The notes below the pieces were generated by a model. It ran no database searches. It was not told the DNA's origin and saw only the letters and a list, made by a program, of their open reading frames with translations. From an uncultured Mycoplasmatota bacterium (lineage in GTDB: Bacteria; Bacillota_I; Bacilli_A; RF39; UBA660): DNA of 44,868 nt. Shown here one piece after another: positions 18,832 through 43,995 of this stretch (the first letter of the stretch is position 1; each line of letters opens with the position of its first letter). A program made the position numbers and the translations under genes. Location: positions 1-44,868 of the forward strand of contig CAMOFW010000001.1 of NCBI GenBank assembly GCA_946613765.1. Reading direction: 5' to 3'.

Positions 18832-19590
18832 TTAAATGTAATTTCTATTATTAATTTTTTCATCTAAATTAAGTTTATCCGCTATAGTTGCTAAAAATTC
18901 TGAATTAGTTGGTTTAGCTCTATCAAAGTCTACAGAGTGACCAAATATTTCATCCATTAGATCATAATCTCCTCTTGTCCAAGATACTTCAATGGCATGT
19001 CTTATTGCTCTTTCAACACGTGATGGTGTTGTTTCATATTTTTTAGCTATATCTGGATATAACATTTTAGTTATACCACCTATATAAGATTTATCATTAT
19101 ACATCATAATAATTGCATCCCTTATGTATTGGTATCCTTTTATATGTGATGGCATACCTAAATCATGTAATAGTTTAGATGTTTTCTTACTAATTGAATT
19201 ATCTGTAAATTCTAATTCAATGTAATTTAGTTTAGTAGCATCAATTATTCTTTGTTCTAATATATCTTTATTAGTATCCTTTAATAAATAAAATGATATA
19301 TCAAATTTATAAATAGATGATACTATATTGTGATTAAAATAATCACTATAAATTATTACTTTAGTTTTAATATTATTATTAGACATTAGTTTTAATAACT
19401 CTATGCCGTCTATTTTTGATATTATTGGGTCTAATAATAAAACATCATACTTATTAGTTTTTAATTCATTAATGGCCTCTAAACCATCCTTACAAGTGTT
19501 TTTAATACATATACTGCTATGGTTACTAAAATACTGCTTAACTTCTTTAATAGTAGATTCATTACTATCCACCATAAATACATTAATCAT
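18832..19590 (-). CDS. spo0A: Sporulation master response regulator Spo0A
   Basis: The C-terminal domain matches the Spo0A signature almost exactly: HIKGYQYIRDAI, LYPDIAKKY, TPSRVERAIRHAIEVSWTRG, AKPTNSEFLATIADKL. The N-terminal receiver has the phospho-acceptor context LLLDPIISKIDG. Confidence 0.96.
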   Translation of the reverse strand: MINVFMVDSNESTIKEVKQYFSNHSSICIKNTCKDGLEAINELKTNKYDVLLLDPIISKIDGIELLKLMSNNNIKTKVIIYSDYFNHNIVSSIYKFDISFYLLKDTNKDILEQRIIDATKLNYIELEFTDNSISKKTSKLLHDLGMPSHIKGYQYIRDAIIMMYNDKSYIGGITKMLYPDIAKKYETTPSRVERAIRHAIEVSWTRGDYDLMDEIFGHSVDFDRAKPTNSEFLATIADKLNLDEKINNRNYI

Positions 19591-28547: not shown

Positions 28548-28576
28548 ATTGTATCATATAAAGTATTTTTTGTCTT
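28548..28576 (-). promoter_or_regulatory. Sigma-A type promoter for the parA operon
   Basis: The minus strand reads AAGACA, a 17-nt spacer, then TGaTACAAT (extended -10). Confidence 0.55.
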
Positions 28577-28584
28577 ATAAAATA

Positions 28585-28618
28585 ATAAAAAAAATACTAT
28601 TTTTAAGATAGTATTTTT
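28585..28618 (-). terminator. Rho-independent terminator after the pilin/DUF285 cassette
   Basis: The sequence AAAATACTAT-TTTTAAG-ATAGTATTTT forms a hairpin, followed by a long T-run on the minus strand. Confidence 0.7.
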
Positions 28619-28622
28619 AATA

Positions 28623-29291
28623 TTAATTTTTAAGAGTTAAATAACCTGCATTATCTAAATCATCTACTTGTGCAAAAGACTTATCAACAATATATTCATT
28701 GTATTCAGTTCCGTTTGGCCCAACCAGATTTGTACATCCTTTAAACATATCTGTTGACTCTTCAACTTTATCCATATTCCAATTATCACCAACATATATA
28801 GTAGTTAAATTTTCACAGTTAGCAAACATATTGTCAGTTAGTGTTACTTTTCTTGTATCCAACATACTTAAGTCTAATTCTTTTAGAGATTTGCAATTAT
28901 AAAATGCTGCTGAAAGATTGGTTAATGATGATGTATCTAGTTTATTTAATCCTTTTATTTCTTCTAGATTTTCAAATCCATAAAACCATAATGCAAGCGA
29001 ATCTACTTTTATGTTGTCTTGAATATCTACTTTTGTTATTTTTTTAATTCTAGAATCTAATGCCCATGGAAGCATTTTAAAATTTCCATTTGTTCTTGTT
29101 AAATCTTCTACTTTCCACATTTCATTAAAACTAAAGTAATCTTTATTTCTTATGACTAGTGTATAGTTACCATTATGTTCTTCTAGATATGCTTTAAATA
29201 AATATTTATTATTATTAATTTTAAAGTAAATAAAGCATCCTGCTAAAGCAATAATTATTATTACAAATACTATTATTAATTTTTTCTTCAT
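28623..29291 (-). CDS. DUF285/BspA-like leucine-rich-repeat lipoprotein
   Basis: The signal peptide carries a lipobox: MKKKLIIVFVIIIIALAG|C. DUF285-type repeats follow (DTSSLTNLSAAFYNCKSLKELDLSMLDTRKVTLTDNMFANCENLTTI and MFKGCTNL). An AAGGAG RBS is present, and the gene starts 12 nt after the upstream stop. Confidence 0.8.
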   Translation of the reverse strand: MKKKLIIVFVIIIIALAGCFIYFKINNNKYLFKAYLEEHNGNYTLVIRNKDYFSFNEMWKVEDLTRTNGNFKMLPWALDSRIKKITKVDIQDNIKVDSLALWFYGFENLEEIKGLNKLDTSSLTNLSAAFYNCKSLKELDLSMLDTRKVTLTDNMFANCENLTTIYVGDNWNMDKVEESTDMFKGCTNLVGPNGTEYNEYIVDKSFAQVDDLDNAGYLTLKN

Positions 29292-29303
29292 ATTATTCTC
29301 CTT

Positions 29304-31259
29304 TTAGCAATCTGATGTTCCAGGTCCACTACATCCACCATGCCATGAACCATCTTTACATGTACATCCCCAGTGTCCAGGTCCAGAACCATGTCCGTCT
29401 GTTTCTGATGCTGAAGTACAACAATCTCCTCCACCACTTGATGGACAGTCGTGAGTATTACAACTGCTACTTTCTGATCCATTTGGACAAGTTTGATCTG
29501 GGAAGAACTTATCACTGTAGTAAACTGTTCTTGATTGTGTTCCTCCACCACAGCTTTCTGAACAATCTCCATATTCTGATTCACCAGTTCTATTCTTTGC
29601 ATCACAATATTTATATGTAGCATATGATTTAGATTTTACTTCACTTACGTGTCCTAGCATATCTTTTACATAAGCATATACTTGATATGATGCAGGAGTT
29701 TTTCTATTATATGTTCCTATAGTAGTAGAAACTTTAAATGTATATGATGTAGGTCCTTCATTATGAATTGTATCAATATTTGTTGCATCTACATCTACCC
29801 ATTTACAATGTTCTATTTTTTTATCATCTATTAATATACATACAGATTTTAATCCACTGTGATCATCTTTAGCTTTTACTACAACATTTGTATTAGCAGT
29901 ATTAAATCTACTATCTTGTGATTCAACAGTTATAGATTCAATATATGGATTATCTATGTCAACATATGCATCAACAATTCTTTCCGGACATACTGTTTCA
30001 TTACCAGTATTATCCACTAATGTTGTTTGTTCCATCAATTGCTTTTTAGTTGAGTAATTAACATCTTTAAAATAACCACTGTTATCTACTGAACATCCTG
30101 ATTCATTATCAACACATCCATAAATTATTTTTCTGGTTTCAGTTTTCCATACTGAATTATCATTTCTTATTTCACATGTTGGTGCTATAGCATCGGAATT
30201 AGATATTACTAATTCTGTTGAGTATGATGTCATATTTCCTACTTCATCTTCTGCCCATAAGTAATATGTTCCATTAGATAGTGGTGTATTAGCTCCTTCA
30301 TATAAATCATATCCATGATTAATAGTAGCGACTTCATCTGTTACTTCGAATCTGTTATAAATATTAGTCATACCAATATTATTTTCAGCTGTAAGATATA
30401 CATATTTAGCACCAGAACCATTACCATCACTTACATATGCTTTAGCATTCTTACCATCTTTTTTAGTCCATCCATCATATGCACTAGATTTAATTCTAGG
30501 TTCTTCTTTATCTATATTGATTTTAATGACAGCATTTTTAATTGAATCTTTAGTTTGAACTGCTACATGTATTTCATCTTTTAATACAGTTGATGCTGTA
30601 ACAATAACTACATTTGAATATGTTTGATTAATTCTTAATCCAACTGATGGTTCAGTTAAAACATTATTGTTATTAACTTCAATTGTTTTTCCTTGATGAG
30701 TTATTCTTGTACTTAAAATATTATCATATGTTGGATTAACAACAACAGCCACATCAGTATTAACCCAATTTTTATTATCTTCTTTTATATCAATTAATTC
30801 TGATAGAGTATTATTGTAATATTTATAAACTTTAACACCAATTTCATTTGCAAAAGTATCTTCATTTATTAAATCACAATTACTATCATCAGTTACTTTA
30901 GCTGTATAATCATAATCTTTAACACTTATATTGATAACTCTACAAGCAAGATTATCTTCATCATCTGCGGGATTGATAATGAAAGGAATCTCTTCACCTT
31001 GTTCTTTTACATATTTATCAGCTACTACATAACCATCATATACTAGTGTTCCAGCTGCTATAGTTTTAGATGCATCTATAGTATTATCTTCAGCATATTT
31101 AATTGCTTGGGATTTTAAATATTCTAGTTTATTATTAAGTTCTTTTTGTTTTGTATTGTTTGATATAGTAAAGTATACTGGAGTTCCTATTGCAAATAGT
31201 AAACCAAGTATAACTATTACCGCTATTATTTCAGTTAAAGTAAATCCTTTATTATTCAT
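29304..31259 (-). CDS. Large modular type IV pilin-like (prepilin N-terminus) surface protein with TSP1-like repeat and Cys-rich tail
   Basis: The N-terminus MNNKG|FTLTEIIAVIVILGLLFAIG has the class III signal (Gly-1, Phe+1, Glu+5). Three modules each carry DxxP...DxxSG...DxxG(N/H). Residues 566-606 read CSESCGGGTQSR...C...CNTHDCP. The tail is rich in Cys, Gly and His. Confidence 0.8.
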   Translation of the reverse strand: MNNKGFTLTEIIAVIVILGLLFAIGTPVYFTISNNTKQKELNNKLEYLKSQAIKYAEDNTIDASKTIAAGTLVYDGYVVADKYVKEQGEEIPFIINPADDEDNLACRVINISVKDYDYTAKVTDDSNCDLINEDTFANEIGVKVYKYYNNTLSELIDIKEDNKNWVNTDVAVVVNPTYDNILSTRITHQGKTIEVNNNNVLTEPSVGLRINQTYSNVVIVTASTVLKDEIHVAVQTKDSIKNAVIKINIDKEEPRIKSSAYDGWTKKDGKNAKAYVSDGNGSGAKYVYLTAENNIGMTNIYNRFEVTDEVATINHGYDLYEGANTPLSNGTYYLWAEDEVGNMTSYSTELVISNSDAIAPTCEIRNDNSVWKTETRKIIYGCVDNESGCSVDNSGYFKDVNYSTKKQLMEQTTLVDNTGNETVCPERIVDAYVDIDNPYIESITVESQDSRFNTANTNVVVKAKDDHSGLKSVCILIDDKKIEHCKWVDVDATNIDTIHNEGPTSYTFKVSTTIGTYNRKTPASYQVYAYVKDMLGHVSEVKSKSYATYKYCDAKNRTGESEYGDCSESCGGGTQSRTVYYSDKFFPDQTCPNGSESSSCNTHDCPSSGGGDCCTSASETDGHGSGPGHWGCTCKDGSWHGGCSGPGTSDC

Positions 31260-31284
31260 TTATATTCCCTCTATTCTAAAATAA

Positions 31285-31313
31285 ATTTTATCAAAAAAGT
31301 AGTTTTTAATCAA
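31285..31313 (-). promoter_or_regulatory. Near-consensus sigma-A promoter for the pilin-like cassette
   Basis: The minus strand reads TTGATT, a 17-nt spacer, then TGaTAAAAT. It lies directly after the ftsH terminator. An AGAGGGA RBS precedes the ATG at 31259. Confidence 0.65.
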
Positions 31314-31314
31314 T

Positions 31315-31344
31315 TAAAAAAGAACCAGATTATTTTTCTGATTC
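31315..31344 (-). terminator. Rho-independent terminator after ftsH
   Basis: The minus-strand RNA reads GAAUCAG-AAAAAUAAU-CUGGUUC (7 bp including one U-G pair) followed by UUUUUU. The mismatch is a wobble pair only on the minus strand. Confidence 0.65.
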
Positions 31345-33297
31345 TTCTATTTTTTGTTCTAATTCTTCTCTAGTCATTTTTGTATAACCTTTAATACCTT
31401 TTGCTTTAGCAACTTCTTTTAGTTTTAACATTGTTGTTTCATTTGATGTTGCTTCATCATTTGGATTAAAAGTTCCAGTTTCAACTAGTGATTCAATTTG
31501 TTCTTTAGTTAATGTTTCATATTCTACTAAAGCATCTGCAAGTAAATGAACTAATTTTTCATTTTCTTTTAAAATCTTTTTAGCTTTAGCATAACATTCA
31601 TCAATAATCTTTCTTTCTGCTTTATCTATTTCTAAAGCAACTTGATCAGAGAAGTTCTTAGATTTATTATAATCTCTACCTAAGAATACTCCTTCACTCT
31701 TTTGTTCAAATTGAATAGTTCCTAGTTCTGACATACCATATTCAGTTACCATTGCACGTGCAATTGATGTTGCTTTTTTAAAGTCATCAGATGCACCAGT
31801 AGTAATTTGACCTAAGAATAATTCTTCTGAAGCTCTACCACCAAGTAAACCTGTGATACGAGATTCTAATTCTTCTTTAGTAGATATACCAATATGTTCT
31901 TCTTTTGGAAGCATCATTGTATATCCACCAGCCATACCTCTTGGTATGATTGTTATCTTATGTACTTCTTCAGCATCAGGAAGTTTAAGTCCAATTACTG
32001 CATGTCCAGATTCATGGATAGCAACTAATCTCTTTTCTTTTTCAGTTATTTTTCTTGATGTCTTAGCAGGTCCTAAGATAACTCTATCTGTAGCTTCATC
32101 AATTTCATCCATTGTGATAGCATCTTTATTTCTTCTTACAGTAAGTAATGCAGCTTCATTTAATAAGTTTTCTAAATCAGCTCCACTAAATCCTGGTGTT
32201 CTTTTTGATATTGCAGCTAAGTTAACATCTTTAGCTAAGATTTTATCTTGTGCATGTACTTTTAAGATTTGTTCTCTTTCATTTGAATCAGGAAGAGATA
32301 CAGTGATTTGTCTATCAAAACGTCCTGGTCTTAAAAGTGCTGGGTCTAATACGTCAGGTCTGTTTGTTGCAGCCATGATTATGATTCCTTCATTAGCACC
32401 AAAACCATCCATTTCAGTTAATAATTGGTTTAGTGTTTGCTCTCTTTCATCATGTCCACCACCAAGGCCAGTTCCTCTTTCTCTACCAACAGCATCAATT
32501 TCATCGATGAATATTAAGCATGGAGCACTTTGTTTAGCTTGTTTAAACATATCTCTAACACGAGATGCACCAACACCTACGAATAATTCAACGAAGTCTG
32601 AACCTGAGATAAAGTAGAATGGACAATTAGCTTCACCAGCAACAGCTTTAGCAAGTAATGTTTTACCAGTTCCTGGAGGACCTACAAGTAATACACCTTT
32701 AGGTATTCTTGCACCCATTTTTTGGAATTTCTTTGGATTCTTTAAGAAATCTATGATTTCTTCTACTTCTTCTTTTTCTTCTTTTAATCCAGCTACATCT
32801 TTAAATTTAACTTTTCCGCCTTCTTCTAATCTTGCTCTACTCTTACCAAAATCCATTGATTTGTTATTAGACATAGCAAGTTTAGTAAATAGTAAATAAG
32901 CTGCAAAAGCTAAAATTACGATAGGTACTACATTTACAACAATATATAATATAGTAGATGATCCTGGATCTTTATTAGTATCATATGATTTTAAATTATT
33001 GTTATTTTTATATTCAATAATTGATGATACCTCTTCTTCAACTACTTTAGAAGTAAATGATTCACCTTCTTTATAGTCGCTTAATTTACCAGTTATATAA
33101 TATACTGATTCACTACTTTTAGGTGTAATTGTTATTTCAGATACTTTAGAATCTTTAATAGCACTCATTAATTCACCAGTAGTTAATTCATGTACTTCAA
33201 ATCTTGTATTATTATAAAATAGGAATGCAATGATAATTACTAATCCTAAAATAATATAAGGAAATGATGTCTTTACAAAATCTTCTTTTTTCTTCAT
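31330..33297 (-). CDS. ftsH: ATP-dependent zinc metalloprotease FtsH
   Basis: The product has two TM segments, the AAA motifs GPPGTGKTLLAKA and IIFIDEIDA, the second region of homology, and the protease site HESGHA. Length is 655 aa. Confidence 0.98.
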   Translation of the reverse strand: MKKKEDFVKTSFPYIILGLVIIIAFLFYNNTRFEVHELTTGELMSAIKDSKVSEITITPKSSESVYYITGKLSDYKEGESFTSKVVEEEVSSIIEYKNNNNLKSYDTNKDPGSSTILYIVVNVVPIVILAFAAYLLFTKLAMSNNKSMDFGKSRARLEEGGKVKFKDVAGLKEEKEEVEEIIDFLKNPKKFQKMGARIPKGVLLVGPPGTGKTLLAKAVAGEANCPFYFISGSDFVELFVGVGASRVRDMFKQAKQSAPCLIFIDEIDAVGRERGTGLGGGHDEREQTLNQLLTEMDGFGANEGIIIMAATNRPDVLDPALLRPGRFDRQITVSLPDSNEREQILKVHAQDKILAKDVNLAAISKRTPGFSGADLENLLNEAALLTVRRNKDAITMDEIDEATDRVILGPAKTSRKITEKEKRLVAIHESGHAVIGLKLPDAEEVHKITIIPRGMAGGYTMMLPKEEHIGISTKEELESRITGLLGGRASEELFLGQITTGASDDFKKATSIARAMVTEYGMSELGTIQFEQKSEGVFLGRDYNKSKNFSDQVALEIDKAERKIIDECYAKAKKILKENEKLVHLLADALVEYETLTKEQIESLVETGTFNPNDEATSNETTMLKLKEVAKAKGIKGYTKMTREELEQKIEESEK

Positions 33298-36682: not shown

Positions 36683-37060
36683 TTATTTTTTATCAATATA
36701 TTCTATATACTTTTCATAATCTTTTGTAGTGTATTTATCACATTTAATATATGCTTTATACTCTACCACATTATTCATAGTTACTTTAACTAGTCCTGTA
36801 CAAGTATCATCATCTTTTTTTAGTTCATCAATCATTTCATTTTCTTTTAGTTCATTAAATGATATATATTTTGAATCACCTTTTGCAGGATATGAATATT
36901 TTTGTTCATAAAACTTTTTAGTAGCTGTTACTAATTTATCTTCTAATAAAGTATATGGATAAATATCTTTTTTCCATTTTAATGCAAATATTGTTAAACA
37001 TGTAAATACAACTAGGATAAGTAAACCCCATACTATTGATATTGTTTTAAGTTGTTTCAT
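36683..37060 (-). CDS. Hypothetical membrane-anchored small protein
   Basis: The product starts MKQLKTISIVWGLLILVVFTCLTIFAL (one N-terminal TM segment). Its ectodomain ends in a Cys...Cys loop. The start is at the ATG at 37060, after a GGTGA RBS. Confidence 0.6.
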   Translation of the reverse strand: MKQLKTISIVWGLLILVVFTCLTIFALKWKKDIYPYTLLEDKLVTATKKFYEQKYSYPAKGDSKYISFNELKENEMIDELKKDDDTCTGLVKVTMNNVVEYKAYIKCDKYTTKDYEKYIEYIDKK

Positions 37061-37092
37061 AATAATCACCATAATAATTATATAATAATTAA

Positions 37093-38216: not shown

Positions 38217-39158
38217 TTATAAATCCGTCCTTAGTATATTTTTATAATTTGATGGGAATCCCATCATATCCATAACTTTATCTATAGTTATAGTTTTAAG
38301 TTTACCACTTAATATATCCATTTCATATGATATTTCTTGAATTAGTTGATGGAAGTTTTCATCTCTTAGAATTCTCTTTAATATTATTATTAAAGCAAAT
38401 AAATCATCTTTACCATAAATATATTCTCCATCCATTTTAGGAATGTTTAAATAATTATGATATTTAGTATCTTGAATTATTCTTTGAGATTTATGATCAA
38501 ATAAAATATCTTCATGAGCACATAGATTACGATAATTTGCTAATATTGGAAAATATTGCATTAAATCATCAATAGGTATTCCATATATTTGTGCTATAGA
38601 TTGTTGATCTTCTTGTTTTAGTATTGTATATAATTCTGATACAATACCAAAAGATAATACTTTAACAGCTATCCATAGTGGTAAGTAACCGTAATTACTT
38701 AGGTAGTGCATTGTTGCACTATGTTGTCCACCATTGATTCTTATTTGTCTTTGCATTTTCTTTAAAAGATCGTTTACTTGCCTTCTTTTACTAGCTTCTT
38801 TAGTAAAGTTTCTAGGATTAATATAATCTTTTTCTCTATATCCATAGTTTTTAGATAATTGATAAGAAAATATACTCTTAGCATTGTTTTCTACTATTAA
38901 GATGTTTTTAAATATGATATTTCTTATTTGTCTATCAAAATTAAATACTGAATATAGTTCATCAAAAGTAGTACCAGGAATAAATTCTCTATCCTTTTCA
39001 CTTTTGAAAAATAAGTGTCTGTAACCCATAAGAAAGAAGTAGTTCTCTCTTAAAAGAACATCTTTAGTATAGTTGATATCACTTATTATTAATCCTTTTT
39101 TTACTAATATGGATACTTGCTCATCGAGTGTTTTAAATGTCTTTTCCACATGCATCAC
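38217..39158 (-). CDS. Abi_2 family (AbiD/AbiF-like) abortive-infection protein, HEPN-type Rx4H motif
   Basis: The product contains FKTLDEQVSILVKKGLII, ENYFFLMGY, YSVFNFDRQIRN, LPLWIAVKVLSFG and ANYRNLCAHED (R210-x4-H215, nt 38514..38531). Length is 313 aa. Confidence 0.8.
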   Translation of the reverse strand: MMHVEKTFKTLDEQVSILVKKGLIISDINYTKDVLLRENYFFLMGYRHLFFKSEKDREFIPGTTFDELYSVFNFDRQIRNIIFKNILIVENNAKSIFSYQLSKNYGYREKDYINPRNFTKEASKRRQVNDLLKKMQRQIRINGGQHSATMHYLSNYGYLPLWIAVKVLSFGIVSELYTILKQEDQQSIAQIYGIPIDDLMQYFPILANYRNLCAHEDILFDHKSQRIIQDTKYHNYLNIPKMDGEYIYGKDDLFALIIILKRILRDENFHQLIQEISYEMDILSGKLKTITIDKVMDMMGFPSNYKNILRTDL

Positions 39159-39238: not shown

Positions 39239-39871
39239 TTATGTGAAATAATCTATTAAAGCATCCGTTATAGTCTTGGCTAAAAGTTGTTGATAATCGT
39301 TTTTTATTAAGTTATTTCTATCTTTATTATTTGATATAAAACCACACTCTATTAAGACACCTTTTATATTTAATTTATTATACATATATACCCTTGGCAT
39401 AACTTTAATACTTCTAGGGGTATTAATTTTATTTAAATACATTTGAATAGTATTAGCTAATTCTTTATTATTATCACCATAGTAAAATACCTGTGAACCA
39501 CTATATTTATTGTTATCTAAGTAATTAATATGTATAGATAAATATATATCAGCATTAGACTTGTTAATAAAATCTATTCGATTATTAAAATCACTTCTTT
39601 TTCTTCGTTTGGAGTTAGGTGAAGATAAGTCATAATCATCTTCTCTTAATAATGATACACTAGCTCCTTTTTTTATTAATTCTTGTTCTAGTATTTTAGA
39701 TATTGATAAATTTAAATCTTTTTCTAAAATATCATTATAAGATGTACCATTATCTTTTGAACCATGTCCTGGATCTATAATTATGTATTTACCAGATAAG
39801 TAAAGAGAACTTTTAACATTAATATTTAATAAAAGTAAGCATAATAAAAAAACAAATATAATTCTTTTCAT
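39239..39871 (-). CDS. cwlD: N-acetylmuramoyl-L-alanine amidase, CwlD-like (Amidase_3)
   Basis: After a signal peptide come IIIDPGHGSKDNGT, LSIHIN, and VLIECGFISNNKDRN. The size (210 aa) and the LLREDD...S motif are typical of germination-specific CwlD. Confidence 0.8.
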   Translation of the reverse strand: MKRIIFVFLLCLLLLNINVKSSLYLSGKYIIIDPGHGSKDNGTSYNDILEKDLNLSISKILEQELIKKGASVSLLREDDYDLSSPNSKRRKRSDFNNRIDFINKSNADIYLSIHINYLDNNKYSGSQVFYYGDNNKELANTIQMYLNKINTPRSIKVMPRVYMYNKLNIKGVLIECGFISNNKDRNNLIKNDYQQLLAKTITDALIDYFT

Positions 39872-41073: not shown

Positions 41074-41277
41074 ATGAATCCTTTTGAAATAAAAATTAAT
41101 GGTAAGACCTATGAATATATAGATTCAAAAAAGATTGATGGTAAGTTTTATGTGTTATATGCTGATGAAAATAATATGTTTATTAGTGAATATGAAATAA
41201 TCGATAATAATATTATCTTAAAAGAAATTGATAATAGTTTATTAGATAAATTAAAGGAGGCGTTTAACATTGCATAA
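41074..41277 (+). CDS. Small DUF1292-like protein
   Basis: The 67-aa product contains KINGKTYEYIDSKKIDGKFYVLYADENN...EYEII and ends LKEAF. This pattern resembles DUF1292. An AGGAAGTG RBS is present. Confidence 0.45.
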   Translation: MNPFEIKINGKTYEYIDSKKIDGKFYVLYADENNMFISEYEIIDNNIILKEIDNSLLDKLKEAFNIA

Positions 41278-42517
41278 TATATATTATTCAATACTTGATG
41301 ATTCCTTATTGTGTATAGATGGAAATAATAATAAACGAATTAAACAAGATCTTGCTATTGAATTTTTAAAAGAAGTTGATAAAACTAAAAATAATAAGAT
41401 ATATAATAAGGGAAATAATCTTATTATTAGGAATAGTAAACATGGATATAATGTAGTAATTCAAGGTTGTACTCAATTCTTTTTATCTAAATATAGAGAT
41501 CTTTTAGATAATACCGTTAAAACTGCAAAAGAAAATGAGAGAAAAATACAAGAAAAGAAACATAAAGGTAAAAAAGTTAGTAATAACTTAGTTGGTAAAG
41601 TTGGTGTTGTTGTTGCACCTATTGTTATGGCTAGTATGTTAGCTACTACTTATTTAAAAGAAGAGGATTTAAGTAATAAATATAGTGAAGGTATCGAATT
41701 TGAACAAATAGATAATCAAATAGCTATTAAAGAAGAAAATAATGTTGGTGAAGAAACTATTCAAGAAGAACCTAAGATTGAAGAAGAAGTAGCTGAAGAA
41801 GTTGTTGAAGAAGTAATACCTACAATATCATTAGATGTAGAGGATCATTCTATGGATGAAGAAGTTATTCAAATTCAAAGTGAATATAAAGATGCCTTTA
41901 TTAAATATGGTAATAAATATGGTATATCACCATCCGTTTTAAGTGGATTATATACTCAAGAATCTCATGGTAAAGGTGATAATAAAACTCAAATTGATTT
42001 TTCTTCTTGGAAAGGTCAAATAGTAAAAGTTTATGATTTTGAAAATAATAAACGTATTAGTGTGGTTTTAAGTAATGATACTAATGCTTATAGTAACGTA
42101 GATAGAGTTATTACTGAAAATGATTTAAAAGATCCTAATAAGAATATAGAAGTTGCAGCTATATTATTAAGTTTTGCTGCTGATGTATTAGATACAGAGA
42201 ATGTACCGGCAATTTTAGAATACTATAATAAAGGTCATGGTAATTTCTATAAAGTAATGGCTGCTATGGAAGCAGGTACAGGTAAAACTACTAGAGAAGT
42301 GTTAGATAATCCTACTGATACAAGTTTCTTACCTTATTCATCTGCATGTAAAAGAGGAGATTCTAATTACGTATGCAATGTAATGCGATATGTACCAAAT
42401 AAAGATGATGGTGGTGTATATATTTATAGGGTTATTGATGATGAAGTGAAATTAATTAGTGTAAATGTTGAAACTAATAAATTATTAGATGATAGTTATG
42501 TAAAAAACACTCGTTAG
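41270..42517 (+). CDS. Membrane-anchored protein with C-terminal lytic transglycosylase (SLT)-like domain
   Basis: The TTG start lies 9 nt after AAAGGAGG. A single TM segment (VGVVVAPIVMASMLATTYL) and an acidic linker follow. The SLT-like motifs are YTQESHG (candidate catalytic Glu), NIEVAAILLS and YYNKGHGN. Confidence 0.6.
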   Translation: MHNIYYSILDDSLLCIDGNNNKRIKQDLAIEFLKEVDKTKNNKIYNKGNNLIIRNSKHGYNVVIQGCTQFFLSKYRDLLDNTVKTAKENERKIQEKKHKGKKVSNNLVGKVGVVVAPIVMASMLATTYLKEEDLSNKYSEGIEFEQIDNQIAIKEENNVGEETIQEEPKIEEEVAEEVVEEVIPTISLDVEDHSMDEEVIQIQSEYKDAFIKYGNKYGISPSVLSGLYTQESHGKGDNKTQIDFSSWKGQIVKVYDFENNKRISVVLSNDTNAYSNVDRVITENDLKDPNKNIEVAAILLSFAADVLDTENVPAILEYYNKGHGNFYKVMAAMEAGTGKTTREVLDNPTDTSFLPYSSACKRGDSNYVCNVMRYVPNKDDGGVYIYRVIDDEVKLISVNVETNKLLDDSYVKNTR

Positions 42518-42527
42518 AGTGTTTTTA
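42502..42527. terminator. Bidirectional terminator between convergent genes
   Basis: AAAAACACTC-GTTA-GAGTGTTTTT is a 10-bp perfect hairpin with A and T runs on both sides. Both stop codons lie within it. Confidence 0.75.
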
Positions 42528-43040
42528 TCTTGGTCTGTTATTTGATTCTTGAAACAAGTCACCAAATACACTAAAGAATGTATGTAATTGATTATCACTT
42601 ATTTGTGAATCTTCTTCTTCTTCAAATTTCTTTTCATTTTGTACTATGCGATCATGTTCTTTTCGTAATAATTCATCCACTTCATTTCTAGATAGACCAC
42701 ATTCGATAATTTTTTTTGTTTGTTCCGCTACATTTATTCCTTCTTTTAAATAACCATCAATTGCTATTCTTAATTGTAATAATGTTAGTTCTGTAATTTT
42801 TTTATTTACAGTAACTAAATCTCCATCTATTTCTTGTAAATCACCAAATCTAACATACTTTTTACCATTATCAAACATTAGATAATTAAAGTATTCTTCA
42901 CATGGCATTTGAGTAAATATTTCAACCATTTTTTTAGGAAATTCTATGCCATTAACTACTTCAAATTCTCTTCTTGTAAATATTGGTCCTTTATCTGTTA
43001 TTATAATATAGTTTCTAAATTTTGGTTCACTTGTAATCAT
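42525..43040 (-). CDS. Hypothetical protein (171 aa)
   Basis: A GAAGGGGA RBS and a TTGATT-16-TATAAT promoter-like sequence lie upstream. No domain was recognised. The C-terminal region is acidic. Confidence 0.55.
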   Translation of the reverse strand: MITSEPKFRNYIIITDKGPIFTRREFEVVNGIEFPKKMVEIFTQMPCEEYFNYLMFDNGKKYVRFGDLQEIDGDLVTVNKKITELTLLQLRIAIDGYLKEGINVAEQTKKIIECGLSRNEVDELLRKEHDRIVQNEKKFEEEEDSQISDNQLHTFFSVFGDLFQESNNRPR

Positions 43041-43623: not shown

Positions 43624-43995
43624 TGGTGGAGTAGAGGAGAATCGAACTCCTGTCCAAACTATATGATTAGACATCATCTACAAGTTTAGTGATAATTGTT
43701 ATTTCATTAAAGCGCCGGCTATCACGCACCTACTCTTTAACTAAGATTAGTAAGATTCGTATTATAACCTAATCAATTATAATATATAACCTATAAATAT
43801 GATCCCTATTCTTAAGCTATAGGTGAACCTAAGATAGAGAACTCCCAACCTTTAATTAGGCAAATACAGGAGTGAATGCTCCAAATGAGCTTTCATTTTT
43901 GTCATTTAATTTTAATTTGATAGTTTTAAGTCATATCGGACTACTTGCAAACATCTATCATAAGACTAGCTTGTCGAAACCAATAAGCTACCCCA
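43624..43995 (-). ncRNA. ssrA: Transfer-messenger RNA (tmRNA)
   Basis: The 5' end reads GGGGTAGCTTATTGGTTTCGACAAGC. The 3' end reads GGACAGGAGTTCGATTCTCCTCTACTCCACCA. The acceptor stem has a G3-U pair, the T-arm is AGGAG-TTCGATT-CTCCT, and CCA is encoded. The internal tag ORF spans 43903..43856. Confidence 0.95.

Follow-up and report, generated by a model that had tools for sequence, protein, structure and literature searches.

The locus

We analyzed a 44,868-nucleotide stretch of contig CAMOFW010000001.1 (the window, by which we mean the whole of this stretch), which comes from an uncultured gut Bacillota species with a small genome and a low guanine-plus-cytosine (GC) content, and we concentrated on a long open reading frame (ORF) on the minus strand between ftsH and parA. 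The preliminary description of this DNA had placed a giant, modular, orphan type IV pilin-like protein of 651 amino acids (aa) here, and the ORF that we recovered agrees with it in coordinates, strand and length. Judged from its sequence, the ORF encodes a genuine type IV pilin, modular and unusually large, which is followed by a gene for a protein of the DUF285/PARCEL/BspA type with leucine-rich repeats (LRR). The elements of this cassette, in the order in which they would be transcribed, are as follows.

31313..31347, minus strand: terminator-like hairpin at the ftsH end, 11-bp stem, -11.6 kcal/mol, z = -3.0, followed by UUUUUU
31285..31313, minus strand: promoter-like site TTGATT-17 nt-TAAAAT with a TG-extended -10, 9/12 matches
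31266..31272, minus strand: Shine-Dalgarno sequence AGAGGGA, 6 nt 5' of the pilin ATG, read from the sequence
29304..31259, minus strand: modular pilin ORF, 651 aa, start MNNKGFTLTEIIAVIVILGLLFAIG
29298..29303, minus strand: Shine-Dalgarno sequence AAGGAG of the DUF285 gene, within the 12-nt gap
28623..29291, minus strand: partner gene, DUF285/PARCEL/BspA-type LRR protein, 222 aa (PF03382, LRR_5, TIGR02167)
28575..28625, minus strand: terminator-like AT-rich hairpin and U-run after the DUF285 gene, -10.8 kcal/mol, z = -3.5, with 0/200 shuffles as good

The hairpin and U-run at the ftsH end, which were found by folding 31306-31348 of the minus strand and were not flagged by a G+C-based terminator scan, set ftsH apart from the cassette. 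The hairpin after the DUF285 gene marks the operon end, upstream of the parA promoter region, and the 12-nt gap between the two genes is unstructured, with a fold of 0 kcal/mol and no hairpin. Together, the flanking hairpins and the short, hairpin-free gap carrying AAGGAG indicate that the pilin and the DUF285/BspA-LRR gene are a two-gene operon, as far as can be predicted from these signals. The promoter described earlier as near-consensus does exist (31313..31285, 9/12), but such sites are no more frequent than expected by chance in this AT-rich DNA (25 found, vs 24 +/- 6 in shuffles), and we therefore rejected that label; the sole argument for the site is its place within the 70-nt intergenic gap.

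The partner protein scored above the cut-offs of three models (PF03382, 48.6 vs 25; PF13306 or LRR_5, 35.4 vs 27.7; TIGR02167, 47.3 vs 30), which places it among the DUF285/LRR proteins, and its N-terminus is a signal anchor or lipoprotein-like signal with a lipobox-like LAGC (IIIALAGC). Two relatives (P0023 and P0025) are natural fusions of the N-terminal half of the pilin to DUF285 repeats, with the same C-terminal cap; by Rosetta-stone reasoning, such fusions argue that pilin and DUF285 protein are functionally linked. The term orphan holds in part: the window contains no T2SSE-type assembly ATPase, as had been noted, and no second prepilin-motif ORF, but the pilin gene has an operon partner and solitary placement is normal in its lineage.

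Downstream partners are not always LRR proteins. In a 'Tenericutes' metagenome-assembled genome (MAG), a membrane-anchored arylsulfotransferase-like gene (PF05935 / PF17425; L009:13476-15404) lies downstream of a 1155-aa member of the pilin family, indicating that these partners are heterogeneous.

Prepilin signal and pilin head

The 651-aa protein is divided as follows, from the N-terminus to the C-terminus.

31245..31259, minus strand: leader peptide MNNKG, residues 1-5, ending in Gly-1 at the predicted prepilin-peptidase cleavage site
31086..31244, minus strand: alpha1 helix, residues 6-58 (AlphaFold helix 8-58, 51 residues), with Phe+1 and Glu+5
30840..31085, minus strand: beta head, residues 59-140, strands 65-68, 82-86, 89-93, 107-114 and 117-126
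30516..30839, minus strand: D2, Ig-like (immunoglobulin-like) all-beta module, residues 141-248, AlphaFold strands within 142-250, pLDDT (predicted local distance difference test) 82-90
30198..30515, minus strand: M1, beta-sandwich module, residues 249-354, with IDKEEP ... SDGNGSG ... YYLWAxDxxGN
29955..30197, minus strand: M2, Cys-containing beta-sandwich module, residues 355-435, matched to M3 by hhalign
29610..29954, minus strand: M3, second M2-type copy with an insertion, residues 436-550 (AlphaFold, hhalign)
29442..29609, minus strand: TSP1-like module, residues 551-606, CSESCGGGTQSR, six Cys, with the Pfam TSP1 models at 561-605
29304..29441, minus strand: Gly/Cys-rich C-terminal tail, residues 607-651, six Cys, and the stop codon, pLDDT 29-51

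The N-terminus reads MNNKG/FTLTEIIAVIVILGLLFAIG (the slash marks the predicted cleavage site; core MNNKG/FTLTE) and has every element of a class III prepilin signal, namely a short leader ending in Gly, Phe+1, Glu+5 and a hydrophobic stretch. The class III assignment made in the preliminary description was upheld by two models, Pfam N_methyl (PF07963; 23.0 bits vs a cut-off of 21.2) and TIGR02532 (26.0 bits vs 16.3), and the GspG, ComGC, ComGD and ComGF models also matched the N-terminus, all below threshold. In type IV pilins Glu+5 serves subunit-subunit contacts within the filament rather than membrane anchoring. A profile of residues 1-140, compared with solved structures, matched some 20 type IV pilins along alpha1 (positions 2-60, about 58 residues), with F6 aligned to mature residue 1 of the solved pilins. 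The matches included Geobacter PilA-N (E 3.7e-9) and S. sanguinis PilE1 (E 8e-7), as well as MshA, Myxococcus PilA, Thermus PilA, GspG and PpdD.

Structure prediction is consistent with this layout. A family alignment of 27 sequences was used for the full-length AlphaFold model, whose mean pLDDT is 78.6, and a model of the head alone (pLDDT 85) consists of a helix followed by five strands. The two cysteines that were earlier suggested to close the head, C106 and C128, are both present, are invariant in 27/27 aligned members and flank the last beta hairpin of the head; they would probably form a disulfide of the kind that is common, though not universal, at the C-terminal end of pilin modules. 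The description of the protein as far larger than ordinary pilins also holds within the species itself, whose canonical pilin has 145-147 aa.

Extra modules beyond the pilin head

After the pilin module (residues 1-140) come Ig-like modules, a TSP1-like repeat and a Cys-rich tail, an organization that makes the protein a modular pilin. Whole-chain Foldseek searches matched tandem Ig-like arrays, such as the bacterial large adhesin 6xi3, GhpA, DSCAM and complement proteins; these are generic matches to tandem Ig arrays only, and they confirm the modules as beta-sandwiches. D2 is kept across the pilin family and matches no Pfam model.

The nine motifs on which the preliminary description had based its three tandem modules were all found (DKEEPRI at 250, SDGNGSG at 277, EDEVGN at 337, DAIAPTC at 356, VDNESG at 383, VDNTGN at 415, DIDNPYI at 434, KDDHSG at 464 and KDMLGH at 532). 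The repeat itself is confirmed for two of the three modules: M2 and M3 are homologous (hhalign 98.4%, E 6.6e-15), but M1 shares with them just the short D..P / D..SG / D..GN motifs (hhalign probability 2.5%), and we therefore rejected it as a third copy. M1 has its own set of invariant residues among 27 members (D250, E252, D278, G281, S282, G283, Y332, Y333, D338 and N342). Its relation to DUF7743 (PF24893) is transitive. The 651-aa protein has no direct match to that model at E <= 1, but the M1 segment of the family profile matches up to 38 tandem repeats, labeled DUF7743 by Pfam, in giant Sec-signal proteins; repeats with this label are hit in P0153 and P0194, and in P0243 the region of M1 scores 19.4 bits.

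Modules of the M1 type also occur as 28-38 tandem copies in three giant Sec-signal surface proteins, P0152 (6619 aa), P0153 (3507 aa) and P0155 (5871 aa), indicating that the pilin family borrowed a repeat that is used in giant adhesins.

The distal module, previously named TSP1-like, keeps that name. It forms a small two-strand unit in the AlphaFold model (551-606) and carries six cysteines (552, 566, 570, 591, 600 and 605) around the core CSESCGGGTQSRTV, with YGD and no WxxW; the Pfam matches at 561-605 fall slightly short of threshold, and so we call the module TSP1-like and not a member. Homologous modules exceed the Pfam cut-off in P0029 (22.9) and P0243 (27.1 and 25.6), and TSP1-like units occur in about 20 of 169 family proteins. 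The Cys-rich tail that had been described does contain six cysteines, and is predicted by its low model confidence to be disordered.

An unnamed family of modular pilins

A word-indexed search returned 31 clusters, all from metagenomes or MAGs. For a full-sensitivity profile search against representatives at 50% clustering, we used residues 59-354 only, excluding the generic alpha1 helix, and obtained 868, 358 and 90 representatives at E <= 1e-3, 1e-10 and 1e-30, respectively. Most matches align at their own residues ~59-350 and so have the same architecture. The hosts are uncultured gut Bacilli or 'Tenericutes' MAGs with 24-30% GC, and the proteins have a median length of about 747 aa. The strict pattern G/F-[TSA]-x-x-E occurs in 132 of 167 sequences, with leaders of 4-9 residues and Phe+1 in 131 of the 132; the exceptions are giant repeat proteins with M1 modules only, truncated ORFs and four near-variants of the motif.

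Among the 27 aligned members G5, F6, T7, E10, C106, C128, IDKExP, SDGNGSG and YYxWxxDxxGN are invariant. Family members are conserved over their first ~350 residues and vary in the modules of the C-terminal part, with further M2-type repeats, TSP1-like units, Cys-rich knots, an ALK/LTK glycine-rich domain (P0017), the DUF285/LRR repeats of the fusions already mentioned (P0023, P0025) and, in the distant P0030, a vWA domain. The conserved N-terminal half of ~350 aa defines an unnamed family.

Strain variation and selection

The host of the window and the MAG 'Bacillota bacterium SIG198' belong to the same species, since their flanking proteins are 96-99.6% identical. The order tilS-ftsH-(pilin-DUF285)-parA-parB recurs in three ENA assemblies and in the 1.26-Mb contig of SIG198 (L007). 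Comparison of the ftsH-parA interval did not support the idea that the cassette is an insertion: the arrangement ftsH-pilin-DUF285-parA is present in all four allele types, the GC contents of the two genes (0.30 and 0.25) are like those of their neighbors (0.29-0.31), and the base composition gives no sign of a recent foreign origin. We therefore rejected a recent insertion. Three of the four cassette allele types were compared with that of the window.

L007 vs window: pilin 91.4% aa identity, DUF285 97.3%; FtsH 99.4%, ParA 100%
L093 vs window: pilin 80.2% aa identity, DUF285 69.8%; ParA 100%
L092 vs window: pilin 67.7% aa identity, DUF285 53.5%; FtsH 98.0%, ParA 99.6%

Synonymous divergence (dS) was 0.44-0.89 in the cassette vs 0.11-0.23 in the backbone, which points to allelic exchange or old polymorphism as a probable source of the diversity. 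The overall ratio of nonsynonymous to synonymous divergence (dN/dS, or omega) was 0.10-0.33 for the pilin and 0.08-0.40 for the partner, and purifying selection over the whole length indicates that the pilin gene is functional. Constraint is uneven along the protein. The most constrained parts are M2 and the alpha1/head region: leader and alpha1 have a dN/dS of 0.09-0.26, and M2 is the most conserved module, with 85-97% identity and omega 0.03-0.12 between alleles. M3 is 64-90% identical. The TSP1-like unit is the most variable part (36-80% identity), and the tail has an omega of 0.3-0.8; in the most distant allele these two least constrained regions show 36-37% identity and omega 0.7-0.8. The cassette thus behaves as an exchangeable or long-kept polymorphic surface locus, hypervariable, in which both genes diverge in step and the distal tip diverges fastest. 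A fast distal tip beside near-invariant flanks is the pattern expected for an exposed tip selected by ligands or by immunity or phages.

A single difference separates the protein of the window from the database representative P0001 and from L001-L003: codon 124 (30888-30890) encodes Thr124 in the window and Ile124 in these (99.85% identity), indicating that the strain is slightly different from those assemblies.

Dispersed type IV filament genes in the species and its relatives

The same species has a second large paralogue of 731-732 aa, 43% identical to the first and ~47 kb from it on the SIG198 contig. Downstream lie three small signal-anchored ORFs, then secG, a canonical pilin gene (145-147 aa), rnr and smpB. 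The small pilin has weak ComGE-like similarity; in SIG198 it has 147 aa, begins MRMKKNG/YTLVELIV and scores 21.1 bits vs the TIGR02532 cut-off of 16.3. This locus was located at the following positions.

L008:9995-14551, L089:10001-14561 and L090: second paralogue and small pilin, about 14.5-20 kb beyond the window start

L089 and L090 belong to assemblies of the study series from which the contigs of the window also came. One assembly (L091) joins this locus to the start of the window, ~14.5 kb apart, and the genes beyond the start are otherwise housekeeping genes; the two loci together thus place three prepilin genes within ~50 kb of origin-proximal chromosome. The small ORFs beside the paralogues are weakly related to each other, and we rejected them as minor pilins because they have plain MKKK starts and hydrophobic anchors, with no G/FxxxE motif and no family matches.

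Relatives of the species retain assembly genes, scattered over their chromosomes. The PilB-like ATPases of the lineage (424-430 aa) were found at four positions.

L087:10001-11275: 424-aa PilB/GspE-type ATPase, flanked by ruvB and by a 155-aa N_methyl pilin, after which comes ruvA
L088:10001-11275: ATPase adjoining hrcA-grpE-dnaK
L006:18399-19691: ATPase adjoining three tandem large paralogues
L040:232-1455: ATPase adjoining an ornithine carbamoyltransferase gene, with a 171-aa pilin between an ABC transporter gene and proS at the same locus

The ATPase aligns solely to the C-terminal ~385 residues of PilB/GspE and hence is without their N-terminal domains; its scores on the GspE, PilB and ComGA models are comparable and all below the equivalog cut-offs. 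At L006:5158-19691 the three tandem paralogues (716, 715 and 722 aa), each followed by small anchored ORFs, adjoin the ATPase gene. In a further locus (L023) a PilC and genuine PilD pair adjoins a related prepilin gene. When 90-odd loci were searched by tblastn and motif scans, PilC/PilD were found only at the non-target loci L023, L039, L065, L072, L074, L076 and L084. Ten further MAG loci (GC 24-30%) carry solitary prepilin genes for proteins of 640-1186 aa amid housekeeping genes, and in ~7 of the 10 the next gene downstream, on the same strand, encodes a signal- or anchor-bearing protein. Since the ATPases, the small pilins and the relatives of the 651-aa pilin are solitary as well, the 'orphan' placement is a property of the lineage and not peculiar to this gene.

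The three tandem paralogues of L006 are flanked by two GH10 xylanase genes upstream, and by a cellulase-DUF285 fusion beyond the PilB-like ATPase downstream, which hints that pilins of this kind are tied to attachment to plant fiber.

The window itself contains a 129-aa ORF (36683-37072, minus strand) with a pilin-like layout, having an N-terminal hydrophobic anchor and a C-terminal ...KCDKYTTKDY, but no G/FxxxE motif. It resembles a 146-aa ORF by smpB in SIG198 (L008:17117-17557, ...KCDSYTTPDY; blastp E 0.002), and neither ORF has a Pfam or NCBIfam match. The 129-aa ORF may encode a degenerate pilin-like membrane protein.

A probable modular pilin and the alternatives

The reading that we favor, with a probability of roughly 0.6, is that of a modular type IV pilin that is processed and inserted into a filament, at the tip or sparsely, with a variable adhesive end and a cognate LRR partner. 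A prepilin peptidase would cut off the five-residue leader, and alpha1 would carry the large pilin into a type IV filament of the species' 145-147-aa small pilin, assembled by the dispersed machinery of the lineage (solitary PilB-like ATPase, PilC and PilD). The bulk of the protein would favor a seat at the tip or sparse interspersion, as has been proposed for PilB/PilC of S. sanguinis and for CofB of enterotoxigenic Escherichia coli (ETEC). A rigid Ig-like stalk could then hold the TSP1-like and Cys-rich modules, at its distal end, outside the wall, where they would act as an adhesin for host or microbial ligands, and the DUF285-LRR partner may be functionally coupled to it as a co-adhesin or docking partner. 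The signal, the outline of the fold, the family, the operon, selection and the lineage-level machinery are the steps of this reading that the analyses above establish.

Several observations weigh against it. Processing, tip location, polymerization, adhesion and interaction with the DUF285 protein are steps that we infer, and no prepilin peptidase, PilB/T2SSE or PilC was found within ~95 kb of chromosome around the gene. Foldseek with the isolated head model returned no significant pilin match in the PDB (best E ~1), and for this reason we dropped a structural pilin match of the globular head, which is not demonstrably a pilin fold by comparison of predicted structures; the pilin assignment is thus based on three features, namely the signal peptide, the profile of alpha1 and a topology in which a sheet follows the helix. 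The TSP1 models score just below the Pfam gathering thresholds or well below them (residues 561-605; TSP_1, PF00090, 20.2 vs 21.6; TSP1_ADAMTS, PF19030, 22.2 vs 23.8; TSP1_spondin, PF19028, 23.5 vs 41). Positive selection was not demonstrated, omega being below 1 in every domain, including the distal modules.

It is conceivable that the protein is a surface adhesin that never polymerizes, its prepilin N-terminus, cleaved or uncleaved, acting only as a membrane anchor and its Ig-like stalk spanning the envelope to expose the distal modules, in which case the many solitary copies would be a sortase-independent device for surface display in monoderms with reduced genomes. The solitary position of the gene and its relatives, far from any machinery, and the lack of machinery within ~95 kb in this species would be expected on this account, and so would the difficulty of fitting a bulk of 650-1500 aa into the body of a filament, the plain signal-anchored proteins encoded by the neighboring partner genes and the presence in the window of a pilin-shaped 129-aa protein without a cleavage motif (36683-37072). 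It would not easily explain, however, the strict conservation of Gly-1, Phe+1 and Glu+5 across hundreds of divergent members, as a charged Glu in a transmembrane helix is normally selected against, and the species keeps an ordinary small pilin, while relatives keep PilB-like ATPases, once beside three paralogues (L006). The modular pilins PilB and PilC of S. sanguinis are, moreover, incorporated into pili (PMC8179133). We regard the unpolymerized anchor as unlikely on balance. Another explanation, that the N-terminal likeness is fortuitous or vestigial in an ordinary Sec-dependent signal-anchored protein whose genome has lost prepilin processing, could appeal to the same missing peptidase, to the Pfam N_methyl score just 1.8 bits over threshold and to the head without a Foldseek pilin match; yet two independent curated models pass, the head profile matches solved pilins over ~58 residues with E down to 3.7e-9, the cleavage and assembly residues are invariant, leader and alpha1 are under constraint (dN/dS 0.09-0.26) and a second prepilin, canonical and of ordinary size, is retained in this species, so that we give this explanation hardly any credence.

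The protein could also be a minor pseudopilin that caps a competence (Com) pilus or a pseudopilus like that of type II secretion, in either case a short fiber across the periplasm or wall, and serve DNA uptake or export rather than adhesion. Competence genes are often reported to be kept in reduced-genome gut Bacilli, the small pilin of the species has weak ComGE-like similarity and the lineage ATPase scores comparably on the GspE, PilB and ComGA models, all below cut-off. The sub-threshold GspG, ComGC, ComGD and ComGF matches of the N-terminus point the same way, but they are far below cut-off and cover the generic alpha1 segment only. Adhesin-type modules (Ig-like, TSP1-like, LRR partners or fusions, and vWA in P0030) together with hypervariability fit an exposed adhesin better, and several large paralogues per genome also argue against a cap, which we consider highly improbable. 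A broader and more speculative proposal, distinctly doubtful at present, is that the dispersed type IV filament system is a general surface-display device of these gut Bacilli, with many giant pilins, each in a small hypervariable cassette with a membrane-anchored partner, the cassettes lying scattered amid housekeeping genes and being served by a minimal, solitary PilB-like ATPase truncated at its N-terminus. On this view the co-divergence of the two proteins would follow from the role of the partner, which would be to dock on its cognate pilin, to chaperone it or to cooperate with it; in a radical variant of this proposal the pilin N-terminus may be a sortase-independent anchor, with no filament at all.

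Other genes of the window

As the preliminary description held, the rest of the window consists of housekeeping genes. They include ribosomal protein operons, secY, adk, ychF, lgt, uvrA, parAB, ftsH and tilS, together with genes for a Spo0A-like regulator, prfB, an HtrA-like protease and transfer-messenger RNA (tmRNA). The regulator (18832-19590, minus strand) is a Spo0A-type response regulator with Response_reg and Spo0A_C domains in an organism of 28% GC and an apparently small genome (the largest contig of the same-species MAG is 1.26 Mb), and it would be noteworthy if the lineage is otherwise reduced.

The sole long plus-strand gene of the window (41270-42517) has a TTG start and encodes a 415-aa protein with an SLT lytic transglycosylase domain. 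The GC skew reverses locally here (+0.37 at 41-42 kb), and the gene lies just before that for tmRNA (43624-43994, minus strand). At the window edge lies a 171-aa ORF (42525-43040), of which no exact sequence occurs in the protein collection searched, and the segment by ssrA with the ORFs of 41270-43040 may be strain-variable or mobile. Between the genes for the HtrA-like protease and a CmpB-type membrane protein are, by the annotation of L001, an Abi_2 gene of the abortive-infection type (38217-39158, minus strand) and an Amidase_3 gene (39239-39871, minus strand), possibly a small defense or lysis islet in the housekeeping stretch.

Implications

Modular pilins explain how simple filaments gain functions, and the few that have been studied are all from cultured bacteria. 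The family described here comprises hundreds of 50%-identity clusters that are nearly invisible to Pfam, and combines a 350-aa 'carrier' with interchangeable tips in abundant uncultured gut Bacilli. Because filament genes are dispersed in these genomes, operon-based searches miss both the pilins and their machinery. Cassette alleles that are up to 33% (pilin) to 47% (partner) apart in otherwise near-identical strains are a candidate strain marker, and the cassette is likely a determinant of host or partner specificity. The TSP1 repeat of the variable tip resembles those of eukaryotes, which suggests a class of host ligands that could be tested.

Comparison with known systems

The nearest parallels are the modular minor pilins of S. 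sanguinis, PilB (pilin plus vWA) and PilC (pilin plus lectin) (PMC8179133; PMC9934059), a comparison that the preliminary description had drawn and that is apt, as both consist of a pilin module with grafted C-terminal modules. They share with the 651-aa pilin a monoderm host, a class III signal with Gly-1 and Glu+5, a small pilin module, C-terminal adhesion modules and a size several times that of the major pilin. The 651-aa pilin differs in having five or six extra modules rather than one, in being encoded outside any pil locus, by a separate operon of two genes flanked by ftsH and parA, in lacking sequence similarity to PilB/PilC beyond alpha1 and in being known from sequence alone.

A survey of InterPro listed more than 1,200 modular pilins in 264 architectures (Raynaud et al. 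2021, PMC8179133), with which the 651-aa pilin shares the combination of N_methyl and non-pilin domains. Its Dataset S1 contains 18 proteins of the form IPR012902-IPR026906 (BspA LRR), nine of the form IPR012902-IPR005046 (DUF285) plus multi-copy forms, and one IPR012902-IPR000884-IPR000884 (two TSP1). The module combination, which had not been recognized when the protein was first described, is consequently less singular than it seemed: pilin-DUF285, pilin-BspA-LRR and pilin-TSP1 architectures are all on record, and the family runs to hundreds. Most of the 651-aa pilin is invisible to InterPro and Pfam, so that in such a survey it would score as a plain pilin or be missed.

The type IVb tip minor pilins CofB (ETEC) and TcpB (V. 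cholerae), discussed in PMC8179133, are likewise large, with a pilin domain followed by beta-repeat or beta-sandwich domains, a proposed tip seat, and ligand or partner binding. They belong to diderm type IVb systems, are encoded inside a pilus operon and have other leader types, and neither has detectable sequence similarity to the 651-aa pilin. Another pilus of uncultured gut Bacillota known only from metagenomes is the TANB77 system of gut Clostridia, whose 'pilin 938' is encoded in one cluster with CpaF, TadZ, TadB/C and TadE-like pilins (PMC11680825). That system is of the Tad type (PMC11680825), in contrast to the GFTLxE-type signal of the 651-aa pilin and the PilB/GspE-type ATPase of its lineage, and we therefore rejected identity with the TANB77 'conserved pilin'.

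The partner belongs to the same families (PF03382, PF13306, TIGR02167) as the BspA-type LRR/DUF285 (PARCEL) proteins of Mycoplasma, Listeria, Tannerella and other genera, but it is short (222 aa), membrane-anchored, encoded by a separate gene and co-varies with the pilin. The TSP1-like module shares the CSxxCGxGxxxR core and six cysteines over ~50 residues with eukaryotic TSP1 repeats (TSP_1, TSP1_spondin, TSP1_ADAMTS), and differs from them in its sub-threshold scores, its YGD in place of the WxxW tryptophan ladder, its bacterial host and its distal position on a pilin. Our literature search returned no paper tying TSP1 repeats or DUF285 partners functionally to pilins. The class of modular pilins is thus already known, and the new elements are a large carrier family that has no name, a dispersed gene organization and a hypervariable two-gene cassette.

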